The notes under the pieces were generated by a model. It ran no database searches. It was not told the origin of the DNA and saw nothing but the letters and a program-made list of their open reading frames with translations. DNA of 64,000 bases from the NCBI GenBank assembly GCA_963753395.1, contig CAVWBW010000004.1, positions 155,062 to 219,061 on the forward strand, written 5' to 3'. A program made the position numbers and the translations under genes. This DNA comes from an uncultured delta proteobacterium (GTDB lineage: Bacteria > Myxococcota_A > Polyangia > Polyangiales > Houyiibacteriaceae). Below are positions 2,010-32,215 of the stretch, piece after piece (positions within the stretch are counted from its first letter, which is position 1; each line of letters begins with the position of its first letter).

Positions 2010-4949
2010 GTGAGCGCAAGTCCAAAGAAAATAGGCCTGTTCGTTCTCAAGCTCGTGTTCTCGGTCGGGATGCTGGTGTTCATCTTCCGCAAGGTGCTCC
2101 GGCGCGACGGTGCCGAGGACCTCTTCGCCCGCTTGAGCGAGCTTCATTGGGGCTGGGTCGTGGCCGCGGTGCTGATGCAGCTCATCGCGATCGGCTTCAG
2201 CACGGTCCGCTGGCAGCGACTTTTGGTCGGGCAGGGGATCTTCGCGTCGTGGCGCTTCCTCGGAGGCTCGATCATGATCGCCCGCTTCTGGGGCGCCTTC
2301 ACGCCCGGTGGCTTTACGGGGTTCGGCGGCTGGCGCATCTACGACGTCGCCAAGCACACGGGCAAGACCGCGCGAGCGACCGCGACGATCGGTGTCGAGA
2401 TGATCCTCGGCCAGCTCGCGTTCGGCGTGGTGGTCATGGCCGCGAGCCTCTTCGGGATGCGATTCATCGGGACCGACGGGGTGCTGCTCGTCAATGCGGT
2501 CTTCTTGGCGATCATCGTCGTGGGCTTGGCGTTCCTGGCACAGCCTCAGCTCTTCCTCTTCTTCACGCGCTTCGTCCCCGAAGGGATCCGTGCGCGCGTG
2601 CAGACGCTGATCGACGCCGTCGGCGCGTACCGGGGCAAGGCTGGCCTCCTGATTCAGGCCGCTGCGCTAGGAGTCGGGACGCACGCCTTCAACAACCTCA
2701 TCTACGTGTGCGCCGCGCGCGCGCTCGGGGTCGAGCTCAGCTTGGGCGAGGTGTTCTTTGCGTCGTCGCTTCAGATCTTGGCAACGCTAATCCCCGCGTC
2801 GATCAACGGCATCGGTCTTCGCGAGGCAGCGGCGGTCGCTCTCTACACCTCGCCCGCCATCGGTCTTCCGCTCGCGGTTGCGGTTCTGATTCCGACGCTC
2901 GGCTTTGCGTGCGAGATGTTCGTCTCGGCGTTCGGCGGGGTCATCTTCCTGCTGCGCAAGACCGGATACGACCCGAAGATCCGCGTCGAGGACCCCGACC
3001 GCGAGAAGCTCGTGGCCGAGGCGATTCCCAAGGCCCCGCGGGAGGCGTGGCCGCATCCGGTGCGCGGCCTGTTGGTGGGCTTCAGCGCTGGTGTATTTGG
3101 CGGAGCGCTGGTCGGGCTCGGTGAAGCGGCGGTCATCGCGCTCTCGTCCGCTGGCTCTACCGGCGCGCGGGTCTTCTTCTATGGACCGCTCGCCTATGCG
3201 CTGTTCTGCGGCGCGTTCGGGGCGGGGCTCGGTTTCGCGACGGCGCTCAGCGGCCGCTGGATGAAGCGCTACGCGCTCCCCGAAAAGGAAGCGTTCGGCT
3301 ATTTGGCCGCGGCCATCTTCGGCATGTTCGCCTTCGCCCTCGGCGCGTTTCGCATCCGTCGCGACCTCTTTCACGAGGAGCTCGTGTGGAAGAGCGCGAT
3401 TGGGCTTGGCGTTCTCCTCGGGTGCGCGTTCGTCGCGGCCGGCGTCAGCGCGCTACTCGCGCGGCTCCTTCGGAGCTTGGTGCAACGCCCCGGCTTCGCG
3501 CGAATCGCGCGCGCAACCACGGGCCTTGCGTTGCTCGCGCTGCTCGGCGCCGGGCTCGCCGTTGTGCTCGTCCTCGGGGGCCAAGGCGAGAGCCGGGGCG
3601 ACACGATCGCGGCCGGTGATGCGAACGCTTCCGGGAACGTTCTCTTCATCGTCATCGACACGCTGCGCGCCGACCATCTGCCCGTCTACGGATACGAGAA
3701 CGGCGCGACGCCGAACCTCGACGGCTTCGCAGAGGACTCCATCGTCTTCGACCAGGCGTTCACCAACTCGAGCTGGACCCGTCCGAGCTTCGCGTCCATT
3801 CTCACCGGGCGGCTGCCTTCGAGTCATGGCGTCATGGCGAAGAGCGATGCGCTGCCCGATGCGGTGACGACGCTGCCGGAAGTATTGAAACCGGCGGGCT
3901 ATGCCACGGGCGGCTACGCCACCAACTTCAACGTCGCTCCCTACTTCAACTTCCACCAGGGCTTCGACGAGTATGTCTTCCTCGAACCGGAGTTCGTGCT
4001 CGGCGCGGACGACGCAAGCGCAAAGCTCCTCCTCATGCAGTTCGTGCGACAGCGCATCGAGAAGCTTCGGGCGGCTTCGGGCGACGTTCTGCCGGGCACC
4101 GCGTACCAAGACGCCGCGACCGTCAACGCCGCGGTGACCGGCTGGATCGACCGACAGAGCACGGCTCCGTGGTTCTTGTTCGTCGGCTACATGGACCCGC
4201 ACGACCCGTATTTCGCACACCCCTACGATGGAAGCGGCTACGCGAGAGCGGCGCACCAGCACCCCGATGCCGAAGAAGCCGCGGCTCTCAGGAAGCTCTA
4301 CGACGGCGAGATCAGCTACTGGGACGCTGAGTTCGGGAAGCTCCTCGCTGACTTGAAGGAGCGGGGCCTCTACGACGAGCTCACGATCATCGTCACTTCG
4401 GACCATGGCGAAGAGTTCAACGAGCACGGTGGCTTCTGGCACGGCACGACGCTCTACGACGAGCAGGTTCGCGTGCCGCTCTTGGTGAAGCTGCCGCAAA
4501 GCCGCCGCGGTGGCACCGTCGTCCGGCATTGGGTCCAGAGCATCGACTTGATGCCGACGCTCTTGGGCGAGCTCGACGTCGACGTCCCTGAAGGCGTGCA
4601 AGGCGGCAACCTGTTCACTGGCACCGACGTCGTCTACGCGGAAGAGAGCCACGAGGGCAATGTGCTCGAATCGGTCCGCCACCTCGAGGGCACCGACGAG
4701 CACAAGCTCATCACCGCCAATCCGGACAACCCGCGCGGCCTCCGGCCGGTCGAGCTCTATCGCGTCGACCTCGATCCCGCCGAACGCGACAACCTGGCCG
4801 CGGCTTCGCCCGACCAGGTTCGAGTGGCGACCAAGGCTCTGCTCCAACAGCGCGCGCGGGCCAATCAAGATGCCGTTGCCGCAGACTCCGTCGAGCTCGA
4901 CGAAGACGTCGCCGCGCACCTCGAGGCGATCGGCTACATGGAGCGCTAG
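2010..4949 (+). CDS. Fusion of LPG-synthase-TM/flippase-like domain, further TM block and sulfatase/alkaline phosphatase superfamily domain
   Basis: N-terminal multi-TM region with RW..LL and IPASINGIGLRE motif; C-terminal NVLFIVIDTLRADH, SWTRPS, DPHDPY, TSDHGEEF, HGTTLYDEQ. Confidence 0.85.
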   Translation: MSASPKKIGLFVLKLVFSVGMLVFIFRKVLRRDGAEDLFARLSELHWGWVVAAVLMQLIAIGFSTVRWQRLLVGQGIFASWRFLGGSIMIARFWGAFTPGGFTGFGGWRIYDVAKHTGKTARATATIGVEMILGQLAFGVVVMAASLFGMRFIGTDGVLLVNAVFLAIIVVGLAFLAQPQLFLFFTRFVPEGIRARVQTLIDAVGAYRGKAGLLIQAAALGVGTHAFNNLIYVCAARALGVELSLGEVFFASSLQILATLIPASINGIGLREAAAVALYTSPAIGLPLAVAVLIPTLGFACEMFVSAFGGVIFLLRKTGYDPKIRVEDPDREKLVAEAIPKAPREAWPHPVRGLLVGFSAGVFGGALVGLGEAAVIALSSAGSTGARVFFYGPLAYALFCGAFGAGLGFATALSGRWMKRYALPEKEAFGYLAAAIFGMFAFALGAFRIRRDLFHEELVWKSAIGLGVLLGCAFVAAGVSALLARLLRSLVQRPGFARIARATTGLALLALLGAGLAVVLVLGGQGESRGDTIAAGDANASGNVLFIVIDTLRADHLPVYGYENGATPNLDGFAEDSIVFDQAFTNSSWTRPSFASILTGRLPSSHGVMAKSDALPDAVTTLPEVLKPAGYATGGYATNFNVAPYFNFHQGFDEYVFLEPEFVLGADDASAKLLLMQFVRQRIEKLRAASGDVLPGTAYQDAATVNAAVTGWIDRQSTAPWFLFVGYMDPHDPYFAHPYDGSGYARAAHQHPDAEEAAALRKLYDGEISYWDAEFGKLLADLKERGLYDELTIIVTSDHGEEFNEHGGFWHGTTLYDEQVRVPLLVKLPQSRRGGTVVRHWVQSIDLMPTLLGELDVDVPEGVQGGNLFTGTDVVYAEESHEGNVLESVRHLEGTDEHKLITANPDNPRGLRPVELYRVDLDPAERDNLAAASPDQVRVATKALLQQRARANQDAVAADSVELDEDVAAHLEAIGYMER

Positions 4950-11514: not shown

Positions 11515-12693
11515 ATGGTCGAGGCGATGTGGCAGGTTTGGTTGCAGCTTGCGCCATGGCTCCTTCTAGGAGCCGCGGCCGCGGGGTTGCTGCACGTGCT
11601 GCTCCCGCGTGATTTCGCGCGCCGTCAGTTTCGCGGAGTGAAGGGCGTGGCCAAGGCGGTCGCCCTCGGGGTGCCGCTTCCGCTTTGCTCCTGCGGCGTC
11701 ATCCCCGCCGGCCTCGGTCTCAAGAAGGACGGGGCCAGTGATGGCGCGGCGGTCGGCTTTCTGATCAGCACGCCGCAAACCGGCGTCGACTCGTTGTTGG
11801 TGAGCGCCTCGTTCCTCGGGTGGCCCTTCACCATCTTCAAGTGCGTGAGCGCCCTAGTGATGGGCATGGTCGGCGGAGTGGCGACCGAAGCCCTTCACAC
11901 CGATGCCAACGCGGCGTCGCCCCTCGAGGAGGCGACCGCGCCGCAGTCCACCGTCGGCTTCTTCGAGCACATGGTCGACGTGATTCGACCGATTTGGAAA
12001 TGGATCGTCTTTGGCGTCGTCGCATCCGCGGCGATCACGGTGTGGATTCCGCCCGGCGCGATGGCGGGCTGGTCCGGCGTGCACCCGGCGCTCACCGGCC
12101 TTGCGGCACTCGCAATCGCGGTGCCGCTCTACGTGTGCGCCACGGCCTCGGTTCCGATCGCAGCCGCGCTCGTCCTTCAAGGCATGCCGACCGGCGCTGC
12201 GCTCGTTTTCCTGATGGCAGGCCCCGCCACCAACATCGCGACTATCGGCGCGGTGAAACGCGCGTTTGGCAACCGCGTTCTCGGGGTCTACCTCGCCACC
12301 GTCGTCCTCGGGAGCGTCGGGCTCGCGTATGTTTACGACGCATTCATCCCGCTCCAAGCGCTCGGCACGATGACACACGAGCATGGACACGCTTGGTGGG
12401 CGTGGGCCTCGGCTATCCTGCTCGGCGCGCTCTTCCTCTACTTCATCTTCGATGACCTCCGCTCCGCGCTTCGGAGGCGAACGTCACCCGTGACGTCGGC
12501 CGCGCTCACCCTCGAGGTCGAAGGGCTCAGCTGCAACAACTGCGTTCGCAAGCTCGAGCGCGCCTTGCAGGAGACCGAGGGCGTCACCTCCGTAAGCGTG
12601 ACCCTCGAACCGAGCCGCGCCATGGTCGAGAGCTCGCTGACACCGTCGGACCTCGAAGCCGTCGTCCGGGCGACCGGCTACGCCGTGAAGTGA
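11515..12693 (+). CDS. Metal permease (ArsP/SO_0444-like) with C-terminal HMA domain
   Basis: PLPLCSCGVIP, YVCATASVP, LMAGPATN; C-terminal GLSCNNC. Confidence 0.88.
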   Translation: MVEAMWQVWLQLAPWLLLGAAAAGLLHVLLPRDFARRQFRGVKGVAKAVALGVPLPLCSCGVIPAGLGLKKDGASDGAAVGFLISTPQTGVDSLLVSASFLGWPFTIFKCVSALVMGMVGGVATEALHTDANAASPLEEATAPQSTVGFFEHMVDVIRPIWKWIVFGVVASAAITVWIPPGAMAGWSGVHPALTGLAALAIAVPLYVCATASVPIAAALVLQGMPTGAALVFLMAGPATNIATIGAVKRAFGNRVLGVYLATVVLGSVGLAYVYDAFIPLQALGTMTHEHGHAWWAWASAILLGALFLYFIFDDLRSALRRRTSPVTSAALTLEVEGLSCNNCVRKLERALQETEGVTSVSVTLEPSRAMVESSLTPSDLEAVVRATGYAVK

Positions 12694-12712
12694 AAGGGAG
12701 GCGAGCCCCTCG

Positions 12713-13183
12713 CTAGCTGCGGTTGTTGAGGAGCGCCTCGATCGCCGGCGTCACCGGAAGGCGCTGCTCGGCGAAGATCGCACGAATCCAGGGCGCCGAA
12801 TCGGCAATCGAAGCAAACGGCATGATCGGCACGGGAATCGGCGCCACCCAGGTCACCGCCTTGAGGGCCCCACGGATGATCGCGTTGCTCATCAGTACCG
12901 CAATGCCGAAATGGTACTCGCCGGCGAGCGGGCCGGTCACCTCGAACCATTCGCCCAGTCGCTTTCGCTGCTGCGCATTGATGGCAGTCGACAAGCCGCG
13001 CGAGTCGAGAATTGTTGCGAAACGCACGCGTCGCTCCACCATTTGCGTGTAGCGCATGATGAAATACTCGAAGCCTTCCGTACTCAACGGCTTCGAAGGA
13101 AAGCGGACGTAAGCCAGGGGCCAGGCTGTTTCGTCGAAGATGAGCCCGAACTCGTGTACGCCCGGTCTCGTCCCCGTGGTCAT
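12713..13183 (-). CDS. Small hypothetical protein (STAS/SEC14-like fold suspected)
   Basis: Start overlaps upstream stop (ATGA); WP..V.FP, LDSRG, QRK pattern seen in myxobacterial small proteins. Confidence 0.7.
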   Translation of the reverse strand: MTTGTRPGVHEFGLIFDETAWPLAYVRFPSKPLSTEGFEYFIMRYTQMVERRVRFATILDSRGLSTAINAQQRKRLGEWFEVTGPLAGEYHFGIAVLMSNAIIRGALKAVTWVAPIPVPIMPFASIADSAPWIRAIFAEQRLPVTPAIEALLNNRS

Positions 13184-14325
13184 GCCTTGCTCACACCATT
13201 GGCAGCTGGTGGCAGTGTCAGCCGGAAGCGGGTCTCTTTGTCTTCGCTTCCTGAAACCTTCAGATCACCGCCGAGCTCTTCCGCAATCCGCTTCGAAATC
13301 GCCAAGCCGACGCCCGCGCCTTGTAGACGGCCGCCCACGCCGAAGGGCTTGAACACCGCATCGAGGTCGCCGCTGAGTGCCGGGCCGTTGTCGGATACGT
13401 CCAGCACAGCCTTGCCCTTGAGAATCGCGGTCGACACCCGAACGACGCCTTGGCCGTCTTCGCGATTCGCCGCCCGCTGAATCGCGTTGGCCAACAAGTT
13501 CAGCGCGATTTGCACGACGTTGGTGCGCGGCGCCATGACCATCGGTTCGACGCCCGTCGCCACCTCGATCAACGCTCGCCCTCGAAGCCCGCTGCTCTCC
13601 GCCTTGCGAAGCGCGACGCGCACGGCGTCGGCCAGGTCGACGACCTCGGCGGGCGCCTCCTCTGGGCCCTTCGACATCTCATCGGTGAGCTCGAGGATGC
13701 GCTTCACCCCATCGCGCGCGTCGGTCACCGCGTTGGCGACCTGCGCCAGCGTCCCGCGTGCCCGGTCGACGTTCGGTGTGCCCTCTTCGAGAGCGGCTAC
13801 GGCCGCGTCCACCGAAGTTTCGACGACAGTGAGGTTGTTGCGAATCCAACCGACGGGGTTGCGTATCTCGTCGGCCAGTCCGCTAGCGACGATCGTGAGC
13901 GAGTACGCTCGCTCCGTCTCGAGCAAGCGCTGCTCGAGCTCCTGCACGCGCGTGTTGAGCGTGTAGAGATCGATCGCGTCGCGAAGCTCCGCGCGAAGCG
14001 TCTCCGGCTCCCACGGTTTTCGCATGTAGCGCCGGACGTGCCCGCGATTGATCGCGTCTTCCGCGGCCTGCAAATCGGAATAGGCCGTGATGAGCAATCG
14101 GATCGCGTCAGGATGCTGGTTCTCGACCTTCTCGAGCAACTCGATGCCCGTCATGCCTGGCATGCGCTGGTCGGTCAGCACGACGCCGACTTCGTGCTGT
14201 TCCATGAGCTCGAGGCCCGCCGCACCACTCGATGCGGTCAGCACGGGGAACTCGTCCCCGCACACCGCTTCGAATACGACGAGGTTCGGCTCCTCGTCAT
14301 CAACGAACAAAACGTGCGCTGTCAT
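13180..14325 (-). CDS. Receiver domain fused to histidine-kinase-like domain lacking the phospho-His
   Basis: VLFVDDE, TDQRMPGM, KPW; H-box reads LADEIRNP; NLLANA, DNGP, GVGL boxes. Confidence 0.85.
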   Translation of the reverse strand: MTAHVLFVDDEEPNLVVFEAVCGDEFPVLTASSGAAGLELMEQHEVGVVLTDQRMPGMTGIELLEKVENQHPDAIRLLITAYSDLQAAEDAINRGHVRRYMRKPWEPETLRAELRDAIDLYTLNTRVQELEQRLLETERAYSLTIVASGLADEIRNPVGWIRNNLTVVETSVDAAVAALEEGTPNVDRARGTLAQVANAVTDARDGVKRILELTDEMSKGPEEAPAEVVDLADAVRVALRKAESSGLRGRALIEVATGVEPMVMAPRTNVVQIALNLLANAIQRAANREDGQGVVRVSTAILKGKAVLDVSDNGPALSGDLDAVFKPFGVGGRLQGAGVGLAISKRIAEELGGDLKVSGSEDKETRFRLTLPPAANGVSKA

Positions 14326-16931
14326 GCCGCCTGCTCCATCGCGGGAATCTCCATCACGAAACAAGCCCCCCCACCGGGCCTAGGTTCATATCTTAGCTCA
14401 CCACCACACTCCTGCGCGATTCTTCGGCTCAGATGAAGCCCAAGCCCCGTCCCTTCCCCTTCCACTCTCGTTGTAAAGAAGGGGTCGAAAATGCGGTGCA
14501 CGACGTCGGCCGGCACGCCAGGGCCGTCGTCGGAGACGGCCACAGTGACGAGCCTGTCGACCTGCCGAAGCTCGATCCAGATGTTCTTGGCGCCCGATCG
14601 CACCGAGTTGTCGACGAGATTGAGCAGCACCTGATTGAACGCCCGTGCAGGTGCGAAGACCTCGCCAGTGACTTCGTAGTCCTCGTGTACGTGGATCTGC
14701 TTCATCTTGTGCTCGAGTAGGTCGAGCGTCGATCGAACGGCCTGGCGCACATCGCAGGGCGCGAGGTCGGTGCCGTCGGCCGGGCGTGCGTGGGCGTCGA
14801 GGGCGGAAATGACTCCGTTGATGCGGTCGAGTGCGTCGATGATGACGCCCATCAAGCGCTCATTTGAAACCCGAGAAGAGCCGCCGCTTTCGAGCACCTT
14901 GGCGGCGTTCACCGCGGCGTTGAGAGGGTTCTTCACCTCGTGCGCCAAGCCTGCCGCGAGCGTACCGGCGGACGCGAGACGCGCCTGGTCGGCAAGCTGC
15001 AAGCTCAGCCCGCGCATCTTGAGGTGGGCGCGAATGCGCGCCTGCAACACTTTGGTGTGGAAGGGCTTCGACACGAAGTCGTCCGCGCCCGCTTCGTAGC
15101 CCTCGAGCGCCGCCTCGTTCTCTCCACGCGCTGTCAACAGAATGACCGGGATGTTGCGCAGCGAAGGGTCTCCCTTGATCGCGCGGGTCAGGTCGAGACC
15201 ACTGACTTCGGGCATCATGACGTCGGTCAGCACGAGGTCCGGCCGGTTCTTCTTCATGAGCTCGAGCGCCTCGGCGCCGTTACCTGCGGCGTCGACTGTG
15301 CAAGTGGCAGCCAGGGAATCGACAATGAAGGCGCGAAGATCCACCTCGTCCTCCGCCACGAGGACGCGCGGGAGGCGGCCACGGTCGAGGAGCACCCGCT
15401 CCGGGGGGCGCTCGCTCGGCCGAATCTGCACGGGCATCTCCACGTCCATCTCGCGCGTGTGGATGCCCGTCGTGCGGTCTTCGATTCGACGCCTCGGGTG
15501 GTGCTCCGTCTGAAGCTGGCGGCGCTCCATGATCTCGGTGTGGAAATGATCCTTGCCGCTCTTGAGGAAGAGTGTGAACGTGGAGCCCTCGCCAACCTGG
15601 CTTTCGACGGTGAGTGAACCTCCGTGGAGCTGAGCGAGCTCGCGCGCCAACGCGAGCCCGATGCCGACGCCACCCTGGCGGCGCCGTTCGGAAGTCTCGG
15701 TTTGATGAAAGCGGTCGAAGATGCGCTGCTGCTCGTTGCGAGCGATGCCCGGGCCCGTGTCGCTCACCTCGATGGAGGTTCCGGCGGCGTTGTGGAACAC
15801 GGAGACCTCGATCCGCCCGCCATTGGGCGTGAACTTCATCGCGTTTCCGATGAGATTCGTGAGAATGATCTCGATGCGGTGCGGGTCGCCGTAGCGCTCG
15901 GCGGGGTCGCATTTCGCGGCGAAAACCAGATCGATACCCTTGGCTTTCGCCGCGGGCGCGGCGTTCTCGGCGACGCGCCGCGACAGCTCACAGGGGTCGA
16001 ACTGCATGATGCGAAGACGAAGGCCGCCCGCCTCGAGCCGCGCGAGGTCCAAGAGGTCGTCGATCATTCGGAGCAATCGCGTCGCATTGCGGCGGACCAC
16101 CTTGAGCGCATTCCGCTCGGTGCTTGGCGCGAGTCTGTCGAGCAGGTCGTCGACCGGCGAAAGGATGAGCGTCAGCGGCGTCCGAAGCTCATGACTAACA
16201 TTCGCGAAGAACTCGGACTTCAGTCGGTCGACCTCTTGAAGTTGCTCGTAGGCTTGCTCGAGGCTTGCCTTGGTCCGTTGGACTTCGAGTCGCGAGAAGA
16301 ACTCGCTTCTTTCCAGGCCTAGTCGGTGACGTTGAAACGCGATCAGGATGAGGGCTGTTCCTAGAATCACCCCCTGATAGACGACCGCAATTCGCACGTC
16401 GCCGAGCGGGACCCGTCCCAAAACCAGCGGGACTAAGAACAGCACGTAGACACTGATACCAAAGGCCGCCGCCCTGCTTGCAGGCCAAGAGATGAAGAAG
16501 TTCACCCCGATGAGCACGAAGAGGATCGTCAGCGCGTAAGGGGAGTCATACCCGGTATCGAGCCAGCAAAGGAGGTGGTTGAAGATTGAGATGAACAGGA
16601 AGAGGCTGAACACGAGGTTGTCGATGTGCTTGGCTGCCCATTCCGGACGAGTTCGTATCAGGATCCCGGTGCCGACGAGGGCGCCGATCCACACGAGCGT
16701 GAGCACCTGAAGGAGCACGAAATGCGCTCGCATGAGGAACCACTCGACGGGGACGAAAGATAGAATCGTTGCCGCCGTGACAAGCACGCCGGCCGAGAGG
16801 CCTTTGACGTTCCGCTGACGGCGGTCGAGGTCGAAAAGTTCTTCAGCGGGTGCAGCAGCGCCGCCGCGCTTGCGCGCCCCCTGGCTCCCGCTCAGTGTTG
16901 AAGACCCCTCCACCCGCCAACAGTCTATCAA
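14322..16931 (-). CDS. Membrane hybrid sensor kinase (TM-HisKA-HATPase-REC-HisKA-HATPase)
   Basis: About 6 TM helices; SHELRTPL and AHEVKNPL H-boxes, two ATPase domains, central REC (TDVMMP); start codon uncertain. Confidence 0.88.
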   Translation of the reverse strand: MIDCWRVEGSSTLSGSQGARKRGGAAAPAEELFDLDRRQRNVKGLSAGVLVTAATILSFVPVEWFLMRAHFVLLQVLTLVWIGALVGTGILIRTRPEWAAKHIDNLVFSLFLFISIFNHLLCWLDTGYDSPYALTILFVLIGVNFFISWPASRAAAFGISVYVLFLVPLVLGRVPLGDVRIAVVYQGVILGTALILIAFQRHRLGLERSEFFSRLEVQRTKASLEQAYEQLQEVDRLKSEFFANVSHELRTPLTLILSPVDDLLDRLAPSTERNALKVVRRNATRLLRMIDDLLDLARLEAGGLRLRIMQFDPCELSRRVAENAAPAAKAKGIDLVFAAKCDPAERYGDPHRIEIILTNLIGNAMKFTPNGGRIEVSVFHNAAGTSIEVSDTGPGIARNEQQRIFDRFHQTETSERRRQGGVGIGLALARELAQLHGGSLTVESQVGEGSTFTLFLKSGKDHFHTEIMERRQLQTEHHPRRRIEDRTTGIHTREMDVEMPVQIRPSERPPERVLLDRGRLPRVLVAEDEVDLRAFIVDSLAATCTVDAAGNGAEALELMKKNRPDLVLTDVMMPEVSGLDLTRAIKGDPSLRNIPVILLTARGENEAALEGYEAGADDFVSKPFHTKVLQARIRAHLKMRGLSLQLADQARLASAGTLAAGLAHEVKNPLNAAVNAAKVLESGGSSRVSNERLMGVIIDALDRINGVISALDAHARPADGTDLAPCDVRQAVRSTLDLLEHKMKQIHVHEDYEVTGEVFAPARAFNQVLLNLVDNSVRSGAKNIWIELRQVDRLVTVAVSDDGPGVPADVVHRIFDPFFTTRVEGEGTGLGLHLSRRIAQECGGELRYEPRPGGGACFVMEIPAMEQAA

Positions 16932-16962
16932 AGAGGTCGAAGCGGTACCAAAACGCCTGGAA

Positions 16963-19900
16963 TCAGGCTATTTCACGCGTGCCTTGTTTCGCTCTCTTGC
17001 GTTCGACGACCCGCTTCAGGCGAGACAGGGTCTCCGTGGGCCACGCGATCGCGTCAAGCGGACTTCCGTTCGCGGAAACTAGCGCGACTCGGTGCTCGCC
17101 GACCGCAAGCTTTTCGCGTTCGCCGTTTGTTCCAACCCGGTGATACTCGAACCACAGGTCCAAGGCGCCTCTGTAGACCGCCTTGACGTGCATCGATACC
17201 TCGACGTTGTCGAACGGCATGGCTTCGCGCAGGTGATGCGTGCCAAAGAACAAGCACTCCAGTTGACCGCCAACCTTGTCCGGGTTGAAGCAAGAGGGTG
17301 CGATGTCGTGAAGGAACTGGTCACGGAGACGTCCCTGCCACACGCTGTAGTTTCCGAAGTACAAGTTGCCGACGAGATTGGAGTCTTGTAGCGAGGTCGA
17401 GAACACCTGCCTGGCCAATAGAGGTTCCTGCCCTTCATCGCTGGCGGTCCATATGGGATCGCCGAGTTCGATCGCCGCGAGCTTCTCGGGCAGCACATCA
17501 AGCGGCGCGGCGATATCGCGCTTCGGCTTCATTCCCAGCAAGAACTCATAGAAGTCGTCGGGCCATGGGGCAGGTCGGGCAAGGCCGTGGCCGAGGATCT
17601 CCACCGATGAGGTTCGCATAGTCGTCATTGCGATTCGCTCGGCCGGTCCTGGCGTGAACGGCAAGCGCCGCCACTCGCAGGTCGCCGTGTACTCGGTCTC
17701 GTTGCAGTGTTCCATCCAGATCCTGCCTTCGATGACGTCACTATGACCAGCCCGCCCGAGAATCGTCGTTTCGAACGAGTTCGTCACGCCGCCGAACAAA
17801 CCCGCGCCAAACGTCTCGAAGAGCCGACGATGGAAGTCGGCCTGGAGCATGCCGCTCAGCTCTCGCGCCTTGCCCATCCATTCGGCGAAGTTCGAGAAGT
17901 AGACGGTGCGGAGAGGATTCGCCGAGTTGCGGAACGTCAGTGGGAACCGAAAGGCGAAGATCACCTGCCCACGTGGGCCGCCTTCCTTGATCTCGTAGAA
18001 GCTATTGCTCGTACTCCAGGTGGCGCTCGGGCCCTCCTCGATATCGGTTCGGCGGCCCGAAGCGAGCTCCTCGGCCGTGGGCCAATCGCTCCTGTGCTCG
18101 AGGATTTTCGCGTGGTAGCCGGTCAGCTCCTCCAGGACGATTCCAGACTCGTCGCTAGACAGGATATCTCCTACGTACTCCTCTTCCGAACGACTGGTGA
18201 TCTTTGACATATTCTGCCGCATTCGATCGGGGCGAACTGCAGAATCGGCGATTTTCCAGCGGTCTACTCGGATGGGAAGGCACTGGTCAGGAACCGCGCA
18301 AAGCTGAAGGCTCTGCAACAGAGCATCTCGCGCAAACGGATCTCCGAGGACGAACTCCTCGCTTTCGCGTTCGTCGCTCTGAAACTGACAGTTCACATTG
18401 TCGAGACGCTGAATATGTTTGATTCGCTGGAACCGCGGGCCTTGAAAGAGGATGGGCCCGTAGAGCTGACCTTGCGGCTCCACGGGTAGGGCTGCCCGAT
18501 TTTCCGACGTGGCGATGTCGGCGTGCTCGCTCGGCTTGAACTGCATTCCTAACGAATAGGTTCCAGAGAAGTGATCGGTCGAGAATCCGGTTTGCTCGCA
18601 GCGGATCCCAGCCTTGACCGAAAACGCGCCTCCTTCGCCCTCAAGCACACGCGCGTAGACCTCGATTTCGAGTCCTCGTTCGGGGTGCACAGGAAGCGGA
18701 CGTGGGAGTTCGAGTTCGCCGATCGTCACGTTGCCCAATTCTGAGCGGCCCAACGAGTATGCCACCGTCTGTGCCATCGCCTCCAGCCCGAAGACGGTGG
18801 GGAACAAGTATACGTCCTTGTACTCGTGGTCCAACAGGTACGTGTCCCGTGCCAACGATAGATTCGTCCTGGTCACGAGCTCCACGCCGGGCTGGAAGAA
18901 GCGGACGTCTTCGAGGAAGCGTGTGCCCTTCGGGAGGGCCGGGAACTCGGGGCGCCAGGTGTCGATGCCGCCGAGGCGTCCGGTGACGATGACCTGGCGG
19001 TCGCCTGGGTCCTTGGTGAAGAGCTCCAGGAATCTGCGGATACCCTCTTCGAGCGGAATCGAGTCGGTGCCTAGGCTCGCGAGGGCCTCGATGCTGCCGA
19101 GGTTGGCGCCCATGCCGACCTCTTCCCAGATGCTGAACGCCATCGAGACGGCGTCGGTGTCGGGGTTCGAGCTCGCGAACATGCCGAGCGAGCGATCGAG
19201 CGCCTGGTTGGCGAAGGCGTACCAGGCGTTGTTCGGCATGCCGGTCACGCCGATGACGGAGGTGAGTGCGCAGAAGATCGCGGGCGGATCGTTCTTCAGT
19301 GCCTCGAAGAGGTTCAGCGCGCCAATCAGCTTGGGGCTGACTTCGTTGCGTGCGTCGTCGGCGCTCACCTTGTGTGAACGCTCCGGACGGTTGATCGCAG
19401 CACCATGAATGACCGCGCTCACGCGACCCGTGCGTCGGCGCGCCGCAGCGACCAGCGCCGCAACCTGATCGGCCTGCGTCAGGTCACATTGCAGGTAGTC
19501 TGCGCTGAGCCCTTCGTCGGCGAAGCGATCGAGTGTCTTTTGGATCTCGGCGGCGTTCGCGGAGTCTCGGGCGTCCTTCGGGGAGGGCGAGCTTCCTGCG
19601 AGGATCATCTGCGCCCCAGTCTCGCGCGCAAGCGCAAGTGCGCATTCGGCGGTGATGCCTCGCGCGCCGCCGGTAACGAGCACGACATCGCTGCTATCGA
19701 GCTGCCTCGCCCGGCGCGTCAGCGCGTTTCGCGGAAGGATCTGGGGACGTGCGATCCGGCGCGTACGGCCGAAGTAGCGGGCCGCGTCGTAGCGCGTGTC
19801 GGTTTCCACTTCGCGGGCCAGAACCGAGCAGAGCTCCGGCCCGTCCACGGCCTCGTCGACTGTCAGAACACGGAAGCGGAGTCCCTTGCGCTCCAGGTGA

Positions 19901-22900
19901 AGCGCGGCCGCGAACCCATCGTAGCCCCAATCGAGGTAGTCGCTGTGTGGGGAACGCCGCTGCAGGAAGATCACCGTTTGCGGTGACTCGGAGCTCGAGG
20001 AGAGGGGGAGCCCATGGGCGATCGAGGCCAGGAGATCCGTCACCGCGGCGAAACGCTGGGCGGCGTCGGTGCCCATGGCCTCGTCGGAGAGCACGGCAAT
20101 CACCACATCGGCCTCGATGTCGGCGGTCGCGCTGGCCGGCACCACGTTGACCTCGGCGCCGTTCGTTCGACTGGCTTCCCACAGCTCCGTGGCGACCTTG
20201 GAGCCATCGTCGAGGATGCACACCGAGCGCCCCTTCCAGAAGTCTTCAGGCGCTTCGGGGAGATTGGCGTCCTGCCAGCGCATGACGAAGTTCCGGGTCC
20301 AGCCCGGGTAGTTCTTCGCGATCTCCGCGGCCCTCGTCGGTGAGAGGCTGCCGGAGCGACCTTCGTTCGCGGTCGCGATTCGCGTTTCGAGCTCTTGGAC
20401 AATTTCGGCCAAGGTGGCGTTGGAGATCTGGGCAGGGTCGAAATCGCCGGCGTAACCAATTGCAACGGCCACATCGACGACGACCTGCACCGTCTTGATC
20501 GAGTCCATGTGCAAGTCATCGATCATGCGGAGCTCGTCGGTCAGCATGTCGATCGGGAAGCCCGTCTGTTTGTGAATCACGTCGAGAAGCACTGCGCGTG
20601 TGTCGACGTAGGGCGGCGTGCTAGGCGCGCCGGGTTGGCTGCTCTCGTGCTTCTGGAGATCGAGCCGCGGCGCGATCGGCCGAACCGCGGTTATGGGCTC
20701 CTTCCGGAGCGGCGCCTCTGCGGCCGGCTCAGCCTTCGCGGCCGGGTCGAGCAAGTCTTGCTCACATGGGTTCACGAAGAAGGAGAGCTCAGCGGCAGAC
20801 TTGAAGCGGCGGATCAAGCGCTGATCCCAGAGCCTCTCGAGTTCGATCTTCGCGCCCTGCGTGAAGAGGTAGCCGAGCGTCGTATTGAGGTCGCGGTCGC
20901 GTCCCGCCTTGCTCTCGACCGGAAGGCAGACGGTGCCATCGATCCCCGCGGTCTCGTTGCTCAAACCGGAGAGGACTGCGCCCGGGCCGACTTCGACGAG
21001 CACGTCGCATTCGTGAGTCGCCAAACGCGCGACCGCACGGAAGTTCACCGGCTGCACCACTTGCTCGCCGAAGTGGTCGGCGAGATCCACCGCTCCTTCG
21101 AGGACAGTGCCCGTCATCGTGCTGTAGAGACGAGCCTCGGTCGGGGTCCCGGTTCCACGGAGCACGGGCGCCTCGCGAAGCGCCTTCACGGTGTCCTTGA
21201 AGTGTGCGGAGTGGAAGGCGGCCGACACGGGGAGCTCGCGCGCACGGATGCCGCTCTTCGAGGCGAGCTCGAGCGTCGCGGCGATGGCGCTCCGGTCGCC
21301 CGAGACGACGGTCTGCGAAGCGCTGTTGATGTTTGCAATGACGACGTAGCCGTCGACGCGCTCGAGCAGCGCTCGCGCTTCATCCGGGTCGCAGACGAGG
21401 CTCGCCATCGAGCCGTCCGCGGGGACGTCGCCCATCAGTTTCCCGCGAAGACCTGCGAGCTGAATGACCGACTTCTCGTCGAGCGCGCCGACCGCATGGA
21501 ACGCGGTCAGCTCGCCGAGGCTGTGGCCGCCCACGGCCACGGGCTTCACGCCCAAGCGCTCCATGAAGCGGAGCCACAAGAGGCTCGCGAGACAAATCGA
21601 GGGCTGCGCGACCTCCGTCTGCGTCAGCGCGCGCATCCATTCTTTTTGTTGTTCGCCGCTGAGGTCCCGTTCGGTGTCCCGATAGATGAAGGGGCTCACC
21701 GGGGCGACGCCGACTTCTTCCAACCAAGCGTCCGCGCGTGCGACGAGCTCGCGCGCCCACGCGAAGCGCTCCACGAGCACACGGGCCATGTTGAGCCGCT
21801 GGGAGCCTTGGCCGGGGAAGAGAAAGCCGATGCTAGGGGCCTTAGCGCCCGTCGACAGCATCACGCGGCGATCCGGGGTGCTGAAACGGTACTCGTCGTC
21901 AGTTCCCGGGGCCTTGTCGATCGCCTTTCGCAGCGTTCCGAGGCGCACGTGCAAATCGCTCGGGCTCAGCGCGACGATCGCCGCGCGGACGACGGCGCCG
22001 TGGTCGATGCGCTTGGCAAGATCGACGGCGAGGTCCGGCATCTCGCCAATGCTCATGCCCGCGACCACATCCATGAGCTCGGTCGTGCGACGCGACAGTG
22101 CATCGAGGCTTGCCCCGCTGAGGACAAAGAGCTCGGTCTCTTGCCTCGAAGCCAAGAGGGAGCGCTCGTCGAGCTCGGGCGCCAGGTCGCTCGAGGGCGC
22201 GGCGCCCGAGGTCAGCGTGACGTGGCTGTTGATGCCACCGAAGCCCATCGCCGAGACGCCCGCGGTCAGGATCCGCGATGCGTCGTGGTATGTGCCGGTT
22301 CGTACTGGGTAGAGGTTCTTGGCGTTGCCTTGGAAGACCTCGTGCGGGTCATCGCAAGCGGCAGTTGGAGGAACGACGCGTCGGTTGACGGCGGCGACGG
22401 CCTTGAGCAAGCCGCCCACGCCAGCCGCGGCTTTGGTGTGACCCACCAAGGATTTGAACGAGGTCACGCCGCACTGATGGGGCTCGGCCTCGCCGAAGGA
22501 GTCGATCGTGCTGGAGATTCCGGTGAGCTCGATCGGGTCGCCGACGGAGGTGCCAGTGCCGTGGCCCTCGACGAAATCCAGCTGGTGCGCGGAATAGCCG
22601 GCCCGATCGTACGCGCGCCGGAGCGCGAGCGCCTGACCGGCGGCCGTGGGCGCGGTGATTCCGCCCTTGCCGTCGGAGGAAACCCCCCAGCCGTTGAGGA
22701 CCGCGTAGACGTAGTCGCCGTCTCGCTCGGCGTCTTCGAGTCGCTTCATGACGATGAAGCCACAACCCTCGCCCGGAAGGAAGCCGTTGCCTGCCCGGTC
22801 GTAGACCTTCATCTCCGAATCGGAGAGCGCGCCCACTTTGGCAAAGCCGACGAGCTCGAAGGCGTCGAGGCTGACGTCGACACCACCTGCGAGTGCGACG

Positions 22901-23611
22901 TCGATGTCGCCGGCGCAGAGCGCGTTCGATGCGGTTGCGACGGAGAGCAGCGACGAGGAGCACGCGCCGTCGACGGTGTAGCCGCCGCCGCGCAGATCCA
23001 TGTAGTTGCAGATGCGTCCGGCAATGGTGTTCGCGAGCGCGCCCGCGAGCGTGTCTTCATTCGGCGCCGGGAAGAACGACTTGTAGATTTGCTCCGTTTC
23101 GGCGACGAGCTCTTCGAGCGTCGCGCCGTCGAGGCCCTTCTTAATGCCGGCCGCGCGGATCGTCTTGCGCACGAAGGGCCAACGGCCTCGCAGCAGATGG
23201 GCCCGCTGCTGCTCGCCGGTGAGCGTGTTGCCGACGATGACGCCGGTTCGATCGCGAGGAAGGTCCTTGGCCTCGTAGCCCGCGTCGGCGATCGCCTGCA
23301 GCGCGACATCGAGTGCCAACCAATGCGTGATGTCCGTCTGTTCGAACACCTGCTTCGGGATGAGCCGCCGCGCCCAATCGAACTCGAATCCATCGATGAC
23401 TGCCGCGCGCGTGCCGTAGGTCTTGTCCGGCGCGTTCTTGTCCGGGTCGCCGTACTCCGAAAGCGGAAGGCGCTCATCGGGCATGCGCCGGAAGCTCTGG
23501 CGCCTGGCGAGGACGTTCTCCCAGAGCTCCCTGCGGGTTTCGGGCGTCTGGATATCGGCAGCCGAGGCCGATGATCGCGATAGGGCTGTGTGGGGTCGCT
23601 TTTGAAGTCAT
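16963..23611 (-). CDS. Enediyne PksE-like iterative type I PKS (KS-AT-ACP-KR-DH) with two fused hotdog thioesterases; one apparent +1 frameshift at 23529-23531
   Basis: IAIIGLGCRYPD...ELWENVLARR, TDITHWLALD, DGACSSS, EGHGTGT, GHSLG, DDLHMDSI, VTGGARGITAECA, YLLDH....LFP.VFGLEAMAQ, DSNLVGNLYFGNY..WQG..R; removing one base joins ATG 23611 to the 2173-aa ORF. Confidence 0.9.
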
Positions 23612-23928
23612 TTGGGGGGTCAGGCGAGGGGGCTGATAAGACAAACGGGGGAAAGCGAGTATACCGAGGTCGCTTCTTGCTTCCGCTGAACAGCGGCACA
23701 GCAAAGAGTGATTTTTATTCACGTTTTCAAATTAAGTGAAGAAAAACTGGTAGTTACACGGGCGGCGTTAGGCCGCCGAGGTGTCGAATTGTGGCAGATG
23801 TCACAAATGAGACACCTCCGCGCGCCACACCCATCGGGTGTAGGGCGGCTCCGGCGCGGAATTCACCTGCCGGGGGAAACGGGGTATCGGCGAGACTGCC
23901 CGTTTCGAAGGCTCATTTCAAGAGCGTT

Positions 23929-24890
23929 CTAGCCGCCGCAATACTTGTCGCCGCCGGAACCAGAGGAGCCGCAGGTCGTAGCCGGGGACGGGAGGGCTCT
24001 GGCACTGCGACGACGTCAGCTGCAGAGGTACGTGCAGCGGTTCTGCAGGTTGCCCACTCTGCCGGCAGATGCCACTCGGCTGCGGCATTCCTCGTCCAGC
24101 CGTTCGGGCACGATTATCCGCGACGAGCGCGCGCCACCGCTGGGCAAGTCGTGAGTAATTCGTTGATCCCGCAGTAGTCGCCGTCGAGCTGCGGTGCGGA
24201 CAGCTCGTTCCTCGATCGGACAACGTGATCGCGATAGGGTCTGCTCAGCAACCACCAGTCGATCGTCTTCAGGCAGAACCCGATCGTACATCCGGGAAGG
24301 GCTCCCCGTCGGGTAAGTACATCGGGACACACTTGTAGTCGCCCGCCGGCTCCTGCTCGATCGCCGCACTCGCTGTCCGCGACGCAGGTTTCGCAAACCC
24401 CGCGGCTTCCGACTGTCGTCTCCGTGCAGGTCTTGGTGCGCGGGTTGCAGCTCTTGTCGTTCGGGCAGGTCTCTGCTTCCGTTTCCGGGGTGCACTCGAC
24501 GCAGACCTTGTCGGCGTCGCAGGCGTTGCCGCTTTCCGCGAGGCCGTCGACGCCGTCGCAGTCCTCGTTGGTCTCGCATGGCGCGCACTCGTTGTCGTCG
24601 GTGTCGCATCGCGATGTGTCCGGGTCGGTGCACTCCGCGTTGCTGAGACAGTCGACGCACTCGTGGTTCTCGACATCGCAGACTTGGTCGCGGTCCGTGC
24701 AGTACTGCTGCTCGTCCATCGTGCACTGGACGCACTCGGTGTCGTTCAGGCAAACGGGCGTGTCTTCAGGGCAGAGCACACAGACGCCGGCCTCGACGCC
24801 GCCCTCGATTGGGGGCACGACCGGCTTGTCCTCGACGACGCAGGCGGTCGCGAGCGCAAGAAGACAAAGAAAGAAAGAAGCCCACCTCAT
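23929..24890 (-). CDS. Cys-rich exported lipoprotein, 3' third broken by frameshifts
   Basis: LATAC lipobox; repeats C..C....C.D; Cys-rich sequence continues across frames to ...GGDKYCGG-stop at 23929. Confidence 0.7.
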
Positions 24891-31070: not shown

Positions 31071-31110
31071 CAAGATTTTATACCTATTATTGCTATTGAA
31101 AGGAGCCCGG

Positions 31111-31488
31111 ATGTCGCTTGCCTCCTCGATCGCCATCGATGAAGCCGCTGTCGTGACCAAGGCGCTGCTCCGCGCTGCCGAAGCACTCGGCCTTTCATCC
31201 GCCGAGCTCGCGGAGATCGTCGGGTCGAGCGAGTCGACGCTGTCACGCGTTCGCAATCACAAGCGCGGACCGATTCCACTGCACAGCAAGGAAGGCGAGC
31301 TCGCCTTGTTGTTTCTCCGTGTCTTTCGAAGCCTCGACGCACTGGTCGGCGGGGACGAGGTGCACGCACGTGCGTGGCTCACCGCCGAGAACCATCACCT
31401 CGGCGGCGTGCCGCTCGAGCGTATGAAGAAAATCGAAGGCCTGGTCGATGTCGCCGAGTATCTGGACGCAATGCGCGGAACGATTTGA
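31111..31488 (+). CDS. Xre/MbcA/ParS-type antitoxin
   Basis: AAGGAG RBS; N-terminal HTH (LAEIVG.SESTLSR), WL..EN..LGG.P, YLDAMRG. Confidence 0.88.
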   Translation: MSLASSIAIDEAAVVTKALLRAAEALGLSSAELAEIVGSSESTLSRVRNHKRGPIPLHSKEGELALLFLRVFRSLDALVGGDEVHARAWLTAENHHLGGVPLERMKKIEGLVDVAEYLDAMRGTI

Positions 31489-32215
31489 GCCGACGCGGGT
31501 CGCGGGACCTGCGTGGCGCGCGGTCGAGTCGCAGCACGTGACGTCGACGCGGAAGCTCGTCGACTCGGACGACGAGCAACAGGTGCTCGAAGCCTTGATC
31601 GACACCGCGAAGCCTCCTTGGCCGCTGGGGCGCCGCTTCGTTGGGCTCCACTACCTTCTTGCGACACCGTTTCGACATCCGCCGCTCCGCTTCGGGTCGC
31701 GTTTCGGTACACGCCGTGAGCGCGGCATCTTCTATTGCGCGGAGGCGCAAAGTACCGTGCTCGCGGAGAAGGCGTACTACGTACTGCTCTTCTTGGAAGG
31801 TACGGAGGCGGACATCACGCCGCTGACGCGACCTCTCACGTTGTTTCAGGTTCGCATCTCGACGAAAAAGGGGGCTGACCTCATCGCGGCGCCCTTCGAC
31901 GAGCGCATCGATGAGATCTCTTCTCCGAGCAGCTATCGGGCGTCACAGCCGCTCGGCGCAGCGATGCGGGAAGCCGGCATCGCTGCATTTCGCTTCCAAT
32001 CGGCGCGCGACCCCCAAAAGGGGGCCAACGTCGGCCTGTTCGAGCCGGTGTTCACGACCAAGAAGCCTTTGCACCCCGAGCAGTGGATCTGCACCGCGAT
32101 CCGCGAGCGCGTCGAGCTCCAACCAGGGCCCGCCGTAATGCGTTCGCGCACCGGCTTCGAGCGCGCGGTATTCGCGGTCGACGGCGTGTTGCCCTCGCCG
32201 GGCGTGACGGCCTGA
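31448..32215 (+). CDS. RES-domain NAD+ phosphorylase toxin
   Basis: WRAVESQH, LLATPFR.PP, GSRFG, AE.AYY, F.SARD; overlaps antitoxin 3' end. Confidence 0.88.
   Translation: MSPSIWTQCAERFEPTRVAGPAWRAVESQHVTSTRKLVDSDDEQQVLEALIDTAKPPWPLGRRFVGLHYLLATPFRHPPLRFGSRFGTRRERGIFYCAEAQSTVLAEKAYYVLLFLEGTEADITPLTRPLTLFQVRISTKKGADLIAAPFDERIDEISSPSSYRASQPLGAAMREAGIAAFRFQSARDPQKGANVGLFEPVFTTKKPLHPEQWICTAIRERVELQPGPAVMRSRTGFERAVFAVDGVLPSPGVTA

Follow-up and report, generated by a model that had tools for sequence, protein, structure and literature searches.

What does a polyketide synthase (PKS) of the PksE kind do when it ends in two hotdog repeats and no enediyne genes stand beside it? This question is raised by a gene in a stretch of 64,000 nucleotides (the window) from an uncultured delta proteobacterium of the Polyangiales (assembly GCA_963753395.1, contig CAVWBW010000004.1, positions 155,062 to 219,061). 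All coordinates below are positions within the window, and the gene lies on the - strand. A first-pass annotation had taken it for an enediyne PksE-like synthase whose phosphopantetheinyl transferase (PPTase) was replaced by two fused E10-like thioesterases, and which was repurposed away from enediyne chemistry. In our reading, to which we give a probability of about 0.72, the gene encodes a self-releasing, PksE-like iterative type I PKS with the order ketosynthase (KS), acyltransferase (AT), acyl carrier protein (ACP), ketoreductase (KR), dehydratase (DH), hotdog, hotdog, which would make a linear conjugated polyene and depend on a PPTase in trans; its own PPTase would have been lost, and the frameshift at its 5' end would be an assembly error. 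The synthase is not part of an enediyne pathway. The gene and its domains are as follows (aa, amino acids; ORF, Open Reading Frame).

16963..23611 (-): whole iterative PKS gene, about 2215 aa if one extra base is ignored (ORF and translation)
22210..23611 (-): ketosynthase (Pfam PF00109 9e-40, PF02801 6e-31; PksE-type motifs)
20950..21825 (-): acyltransferase (Pfam PF00698 7e-31; GHSLGE, AAFHS)
20392..20592 (-): single PksE-type ACP (DDLHMDSI; PP-binding E 0.009)
19123..19683 (-): ketoreductase (Pfam PF08659 2e-26)
18094..18882 (-): dehydratase (Pfam PF21089 5.5e-6, PF14765 3e-14)
17455..17979 (-): first hotdog half (HD1), diverged enediyne-type thioesterase domain (profile, AlphaFold2 model, conservation)
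17005..17418 (-): second hotdog half (HD2), enediyne-type thioesterase domain (phmmer, tblastn, conservation)

The long ORF (16963-23484, -; 2173 aa; stop codon at 16963-16965) is the single gene in the interval 16963-23611, and an ATG at 23611, in another frame, opens 26 codons MTSKATPHSPIAIIGLGCRYPDARNP, which are the usual ketosynthase start. On the 2173-aa ORF, Pfam places the KS at aa 1-376, the AT at 554-845, the KR at 1268-1454 and the DH at 1535-1797, and from the N-terminus the domain order is KS-AT-ACP-KR-DH-hotdog-hotdog. In the translation, the KS has its Cys in DGACSSSL and its His in EGHGTGT and VGHTKAAAG, the KR keeps the glycine-rich NADPH motif, and the DH contains LLDHEYKDVYLFP and DALLQ; the catalytic motifs are intact and all 2173 codons are open. 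The AT motifs GHSLGE and AAFHS presumably indicate malonyl specificity. The closest solved relative of the ACP, which Pfam sees weakly, is the CalE8 ACP (2l9f, E 2.5e-8), and the two have the motif DDLHMxSI in common. No ACPS/PPTase domain was found in the protein by Pfam at E<=0.01, and only about 35 residues lie between the DH and the first hotdog. The architecture that had been read from the letters, with two hotdog repeats after the DH and no PPTase, is borne out by the Pfam matches, the CalE8 ACP match and this short gap. All five PksE-type motifs quoted by the first-pass annotation are present as well. In an alignment, the window protein has them in common with a RerA-like protein and with four Streptomyces PksE that are cassette-linked, and they are not in another PKS of the same genome.

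For the last 344 residues, Pfam gives only weak matches (4HBT_2, E 0.035). HD2 is recognised by phmmer from its single sequence, with CalE7 (7e-13), 4i4j (1.4e-12) and DynE7 (1e-11) as matches, and it aligns with the E10 gene of Streptomyces clavuligerus in tblastn at 31% identity (1.6e-13). The entry 4i4j is labelled 'ACP-polyene thioesterase', and we take it to be SgcE10. HD1 as a single sequence did not recognise the enediyne thioesterases. Its profile, built from 40 homologues, matches DynE7 (5e-17), 5vpj (1e-15), 4i4j (1e-14) and CalE7 (1e-12) over the whole domain, and the next, unrelated PDB match is at E 0.19. The single-sequence matches of HD2 and the profile matches of HD1 indicate that both repeats are E10/E7-like, as the annotation had stated, and they also support its view of a stand-alone enzyme with a fused pair of enediyne-type thioesterases. 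CalE7, DynE7 and SgcE10 are free-standing single domains, whereas the window has two copies fused in tandem to the PKS end.

AlphaFold2 modelled this region from a 28-sequence alignment as two hotdog halves (predicted local distance difference test, 90.9; predicted template modelling score, 0.90), and the C-terminus is not a PPTase, the case that the annotation had named against itself. The top fold matches of the di-hotdog model are tandem-hotdog acyl-ACP thioesterases (Foldseek 9mqf, E 2.9e-14). In VIA-align, At-FatA reaches Z 23.1 with a root-mean-square deviation of 3.0 A over 244 residues, and ACOT7/12 (Z 20-22), LnmK (Z 19) and MaoC-type dehydratases (Z 16-17) are also matched. FatA/FatB and their bacterial relatives have the two-hotdog fold in common with the model (Z 22-23, about 3 A over about 245 residues), and their task is the hydrolysis of an ACP-bound chain; however, identity is 8-14% and no sequence-level homology was detected, so the likeness is one of arrangement and not of family membership. 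We considered the hotdogs as a FabA-like dehydratase/isomerase and rejected this, given sequence matches to enediyne thioesterases only and MaoC-type folds at Z 16-17 versus 22-23.

HD1 retains the invariant W..G..RE motif, and HD2 has N..N.Y..NY..W.G. Conservation was counted over 28 double-hotdog family sequences, with the CalE7 positions N19, Y29 and R37 taken from the alignment. In HD1, W40, G42 and R45 are each found in 28 of 28, while the Asn aligned to CalE7 N19 (N27) is found in 11 of 28. In HD2, N211 is invariant (28 of 28), N207, Y213 and Y217 are each kept in 27 of 28, and R225 (aligned to CalE7 R37) in 19 of 28; HD2 of the window has all three CalE7-aligned residues Asn/Tyr/Arg. 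We assume that N19, Y29 and R37 are catalytic in CalE7. Conservation in one half thus complements that in the other (Arg in HD1, Asn/Tyr in HD2), and the alignment suggests that HD1 and HD2 may form a pseudo-dimer with one composite active site.

To see where such double hotdogs occur, a double-hotdog profile was run against 1.84 billion representative proteins and gave 1004 matches at E<=0.001, of which 642 reach <=1e-10 and 351 reach <=1e-30. These matches end synthases of 2200-2900 aa, and are also found in proteins of about 500-550 aa behind about 200 residues (RerB-like) and in free proteins of about 340-400 aa. A homologue search with HD2 only (23 candidates scored) gave 13 matches, which seem to be pieces of fused enzymes; free E10 proteins were not among them.

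The closest characterised system is RerA/RerB of Rhodococcus erythropolis PR4, in which RerA is KS-AT-ACP-ACP-KR-DH and RerB contains a PPTase, a domain Y described as unknown, plus a thioesterase (TE) (PMC11563203). From malonyl-CoA and NADPH, the pair makes yellow polyenes with 6-9 conjugated double bonds (C15-C19), including heptadecaoctaene and nonadecanonaene, and ACP-bound chains reach C22; when the RerB TE is inactivated, orange enzyme-bound species are seen, and the TE acts as a releasing hydrolase (PMC11563203). In our set, the locus of Rhodococcus sp. (L074) contains a 2064-aa ORF followed by a 546-aa RerB-like ORF with a PPTase and a double hotdog (about residues 220-510). The double hotdog in this 546-aa ORF indicates that domain Y of RerB, judged on the RerB-like locus, is most likely the first, diverged hotdog. 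No description of the identity of domain Y or of the PPTase-less form was found in the literature, PMC11563203 being covered by its main text. The window synthase is similar to RerA/RerB in its PksE-like KS, the KS-AT-ACP-KR-DH order, the missing enoylreductase and enediyne cassette, and a C-terminal 'Y-TE' release unit (the homologous double hotdog, as seen in L074), and a linear conjugated polyene is expected of both. In contrast, RerA has two ACPs and its release unit is on a second protein behind a PPTase, while the window protein has one ACP, no PPTase, and a DH joined to the hotdogs via about 35 residues.

On this comparison, the enzyme would work as follows. A PPTase acting in trans would prime the single ACP, the AT would load malonyl units, and the KS, KR and DH would iterate to give an ACP-bound polyene, which should be fully conjugated because there is no enoylreductase. 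The in-cis double hotdog would then hydrolyse the thioester, and decarboxylation and dehydration may follow, giving a linear polyene hydrocarbon or polyenone as for PKSE/TE pairs and RerA/RerB.

Enediyne PKSE (SgcE, CalE8, DynE8) are similar in other respects. In the parts of PMC9992847 cited here, every PKSE/TE pair gives 1,3,5,7,9,11,13-pentadecaheptaene, and the minimal cassette consists of PKSE, TE and three conserved genes. Our reference cassette loci, obtained by tblastn of plasmids, are four Streptomyces plasmid loci (L082-L085) with DUF1702 (E3), UnbV/CRTAC1 (E4), UnbU (E5), a PKS of 1964-1984 aa and an acyl-CoA thioesterase of 152-157 aa. The window synthase has the KS, ACP and DH motifs in common with them, with 52-53% KS identity; the thioesterase family is the same, no enoylreductase is present and polyene chemistry is expected. 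However, the PKSE ends in a PPTase, works with a free single-hotdog TE, and has DUF1702, UnbV and UnbU beside it, none of which is seen here. PfaA belongs to a related KS family, and NCBIfam TIGR02813 aligns from the first KS residues, but at 499.2 bits it is far under its cut-off of 1010.1, and the window synthase has neither tandem ACPs nor adjacent enoylreductase or FabA-like DH partner genes.

The genome itself (4.94 Mb in 19 contigs, 99.42% complete) was searched for the cassette. E3 (DUF1702), E4 (UnbV) and E5 (UnbU) of S. clavuligerus have no tblastn match at E<=0.01 in it, and no E3/E4/E5 gene is among the window neighbours of the synthase, so that the missing cassette noted for the neighbourhood extends to the genome search. 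PF07593 (UnbV_ASPIC) also has no match in the genome; its control was likewise 0 of 14 genomes, so this search alone is uninformative and the absence claim rests on tblastn. The S. clavuligerus PKS finds the synthase gene at 36% identity and three other PKS/KS genes weakly, and the S. clavuligerus thioesterase matches HD2 of the synthase gene only.

The placement of the KS was examined in solved structures and in a tree. A whole-protein search of solved structures returned modular PKS first, with no DynE8 chain among the best 60 of 205, and residues 1-145 gave weak matches (best E 0.0025); a solved PksE KS is seemingly absent from the PDB set, so the KS cannot be placed by PDB. The KS tree has 52 rows (IQ-TREE, LG+G4), with two other, distant KS of the same genome as outgroup and the four Streptomyces PksE as its PKSE references, SgcE, CalE8 and DynE8 not being among its rows. 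The PksE-like KS group together at 100/99, and the four cassette-linked PksE form a clade at 100/100 that excludes the window. The window KS is inside a Myxococcota clade of 9 rows (91/85), which joins the non-cassette relatives apart from the cassette clade (88/91), and a quick tree of all 85 rows concurs. The enediyne clade is one branch among the non-cassette relatives. The KS is therefore a member of the PksE-like superfamily, outside the cassette-linked clade. The first-pass annotation had staked its reading on the KS falling within the PksE clade, and on that measure the result is borderline, as membership of the superfamily stands and membership of the cassette-linked clade does not. 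Its phrase 'repurposed away from enediyne chemistry' goes beyond the tree, which does not show a direction.

Full-length relatives from the database search are 2216-2223 aa with 73-78% identity and come from metagenome-assembled genomes (MAGs) of Myxococcales, and more distant relatives of 2200-3200 aa number in the hundreds. We collected 79 loci from named genomes, searched the domain pieces in all loci, and classed the 81 with a full KS match. A DH followed directly by two hotdogs is found in 6 of the 81, plus the window, all of them Myxococcota MAGs. The form DH-PPTase-hotdog-hotdog is found in 35 of 81, with hosts in cyanobacteria, Desulfobacterota, Nitrospirota, Planctomycetota, Omnitrophota, Gammaproteobacteria, Rhodococcus and others, and DH-PPTase without hotdogs in the match in 20 of 81 (cyanobacteria and one planctomycete). 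The remaining loci are the 4 cassette loci and 16 truncated at the end of a contig. For eight representatives, Pfam gives the same classes and shows further fusions, with up to four ACPs. PPTase presence or absence changes twice on the tree, in the Myxococcota clade and in L024, a long-branch row that groups with the Rhodococcus locus. Because DH-PPTase-hotdog-hotdog occurs in many phyla, the PPTase-less form occurs in Myxococcota only, and the tree has two state changes, the most likely course is deletion of the PPTase from an earlier form in which PPTase and hotdogs were already combined, and the window synthase would descend from this widespread form through PPTase loss. The earlier wording, in which the hotdogs 'replaced' the PPTase, gives way to deletion as the more likely event, since 35 relatives carry the PPTase and both hotdogs.

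Other relatives show further architectures. For example, P0056 (3214 aa) and similar relatives have an N-terminal PilZ and, after the hotdogs, a FAD amine-oxidase/phytoene-desaturase-like domain, and these fusions suggest that c-di-GMP may exert control and that a polyene may be desaturated or oxidised further. On plasmid Cy782201 of Gloeothece verrucosa PCC 7822 (L086 8857-24913), the synthase is split into genes of 1022 and 1673 aa, followed by three genes annotated as tryptophan 7-halogenase and a carotenoid oxygenase, a gene content that may point to polyenes being halogenated or cleaved in this branch.

A synthase without its own PPTase would need one from elsewhere, and the check for a trans PPTase proposed by the annotation found two Sfp-type PPTases (PF01648) on other contigs of the genome, one of 230 aa on C5 and one of 216 aa (4PPT_N and ACPS) on C2. 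No homologue of a PksE-type or RerB-type PPTase was found in the genome (best E 0.24). The 230-aa protein is a candidate for priming the synthase. It stands at the end of a second lipid/polyketide cluster outside the window (C5:46344-62773; locus L087 2344-18773), which contains an acyl-CoA dehydrogenase, a 2831-aa PKS (two KS matches, AT, ACP, KR, DH) and a 1850-aa multidomain acetyl-CoA-carboxylase-like protein.

The 26 codons at the start of the gene are split off by a single base.

23532..23534 (-): one-base insertion site, which splits off the first 26 codons (DNA alignment and public contigs)

The N-terminus is in frame in all 16 of 16 related loci, where it reads ...YPDARNPRELWENVL..RRQSFRRMPDERL, and in a DNA alignment the window is one base longer than each of 5 of 5 relatives at about 23532-23534. 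Public contigs from 4 runs (4 studies) were compared over 23200-23900; run X4 does not bridge the frameshift site, and the contigs X1, X6 and X10 (3 runs, 3 studies) are each one letter short at 23532-23534. Identity to the window is 99+% for X1 and 95-99% for X6 and X10. X1 differs from the window by one substitution in 462 bases and two single-base indels, one at 23532-23534 and one at 23627 in the 5' untranslated part. As the base is missing from 16 of 16 loci, 5 of 5 relatives and the contigs of three runs, it is most likely a consensus or assembly error of the window, and at the least, intact alleles are present in near-identical populations. An inactivating frameshift, which the annotation had named as a threat to its reading, is thus very probably not real. 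The two single-base indels relative to X1 also mean that the assembly may hold more of them, and other apparent frameshifts need care. Near-identical relatives of the window occur in marine-sediment and salt-marsh runs, and in one RNA run only 5% of the sampled words are present. Two database homologues from other assemblies, P0010 and P0014, likewise start at an internal Met (MPDVRL and MPDERL), which could be a similar upstream indel or a choice of the gene caller.

Several points weigh against our reading of a self-releasing polyene synthase. The KS is only 55% identical to that of L074, which is a Rhodococcus sp. and not PR4, and the characterised relative has two ACPs and its own PPTase. 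The idea of a composite site is built on an alignment and on assumed residue roles in CalE7. The fold is matched by LnmK too, which is an acyltransferase/decarboxylase, and the window sequence itself bears the frameshift. The last point is what a pseudogene would show: if the insertion were real, the 26 codons, which form the first strand of the KS fold, would be lost and the enzyme would be dead in this strain. The same-clade proteins P0010 and P0014 with their internal Met fit this view. However, no stop interrupts the other 2173 codons and none of the catalytic motifs is damaged, the 99+% identical X1 and the two contigs at 95-99% are without the extra base, and X1, with a second single-base indel but just one substitution in 462 bases, looks as expected for consensus indel errors, so that a dead gene is quite improbable.

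The match with LnmK bears on the release step, since it means that hydrolysis is not the sole chemistry of the fold. Possibly the chain is not simply released, and the double hotdog transfers it to an acceptor or acts as a decarboxylase/acyltransferase, the product ending up in a membrane lipid or in a larger metabolite made with unlinked genes. LnmK is itself a double-hotdog enzyme of this chemistry (Z 19), some relatives carry extra fused domains (the FAD amine oxidase and PilZ of P0056), the Gloeothece locus with its three halogenase-like genes and carotenoid oxygenase shows that tailoring occurs in the family, and a membrane sensor kinase is conserved adjacent to the synthase. Against these stand the homology of both halves in sequence to enediyne thioesterases only, the acyl-ACP thioesterases as top fold matches (Z 22-23 versus 19 for LnmK), the absence of any tailoring gene adjoining the window synthase, and the RerB TE, which is a releasing hydrolase (PMC11563203); we regard a non-hydrolytic fate as unlikely. 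A true enediyne or other warhead synthase, with partner genes elsewhere or too diverged to see, is very improbable. JGI labels relatives 'enediyne polyketide synthase', and PMC10308959, in the parts cited here, suggests that the deltaproteobacterial 'enediyne' KS of marine sediment may mark new producers. However, the genome has no tblastn match to E3, E4 or E5, the KS is outside the 100/100 cassette-linked clade, and no cassette was seen in the six complete PPTase-less loci, the flanks of which were searched only with the window neighbour genes and the domain probes.

A conserved kinase stands beside our proposed polyene synthase.

14322..16931 (-): hybrid histidine kinase, 869 aa (Pfam HisKA, HATPase_c, Response_reg; hydrophobic N-terminus)

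It starts about 30 bases past the PKS stop and is laid out as about six hydrophobic segments followed by HisKA-HATPase-REC-HisKA-HATPase. Of the 6 complete PPTase-less loci, 5 have a homologue of this kinase, including its membrane part, immediately downstream of the PKS. It is kept in L007 and L023, although their PKS are 46-47% identical, and L024 is without it. Among 36 PPTase-bearing loci (3 of which have less than 600 bases of downstream sequence), a match to the kinase core is found within 3.5 kb downstream in 3, and a match to the membrane part in none. The synthase and the membrane kinase might form one conserved functional unit, in which a polyene that is lipophilic and sensitive to oxidation and light would be sited in the membrane, as the ligand or reporter read by the multi-pass sensor; this is a tentative idea and we hold it to be doubtful. 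If it is true, the module would be the cell's own sensor of redox, light or membrane state, and not an antibiotic or pigment maker.

Among the other window neighbours are two-component kinases and a gene for a Cys-rich lipoprotein-like product, the rest being unrelated; by Pfam, no tailoring genes are among the neighbours beside the synthase. The genes mentioned here are as follows.

24114-24890 (-): Cys-rich protein (258 aa; lipoprotein-like signal peptide), upstream of the synthase, in no Pfam family
31448-32215 (+): RES-domain protein (Pfam E 5e-25), with a small ORF at 31090-31488 just upstream
2010-4949 (+): 979-aa fusion of a lysyl-phosphatidylglycerol-synthase-type membrane domain and a sulfatase/phosphodiesterase domain

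Six close loci have a counterpart of the 258-aa protein at 40-46%, which in L001 and L019, the 2 loci with both genes, stands immediately upstream of the synthase gene; L007 and L023 gave no match to it. Pfam gave nothing above threshold for the kinase N-terminus, the 258-aa protein and a 156-aa gene. The RES-domain protein and its small ORF may be a toxin-antitoxin pair of the RES-Xre type. A promoter and terminator scan of 12500-24300 found one promoter-like site (1.1 expected) and six terminator-like sites (9.0 expected), none above chance, and these counts therefore have no bearing on an operon.

The synthase is less novel than the first-pass annotation implied, as its family is spread widely, with 351 clusters at E<=1e-30, and RerA/RerB were already shown to make polyenes (PMC11563203). 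Members of the family have also appeared in the literature, as 'enediyne' KS from outside the actinobacteria. In the parts of PMC10308959 cited here, such KS are enriched in marine sediments, many of them belong to a clade that is nearest to a deltaproteobacterial KS and outside the actinobacterial clade that contains all MIBiG enediyne KS, and they are proposed as new enediyne sources; enediyne-type KS clusters in cyanobacteria were noted earlier (PMC4247773, in the part cited). Going by these parts of PMC10308959, the window gene probably belongs to its deltaproteobacterial/Myxococcota KS group. Here, a nearly complete genome without a cassette, but with a self-releasing synthase of the RerA/RerB kind, suggests that these KS tags are better taken as marks of polyene synthases than as enediyne leads. 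The value of the locus is in correcting the reading of marine-sediment 'enediyne' KS, in identifying domain Y, which would be a second, diverged enediyne thioesterase copy and would form with the TE an acyl-ACP-thioesterase-like pseudo-dimer with probably one composite site, and in showing a conserved kinase partner. The PPTase-less form would be the smallest known one-protein version of this machinery, and a helper PPTase such as Sfp would be the sole addition needed to test it. Moreover, what these polyenes do biologically could be approached by tests that start from the conserved kinase pairing.

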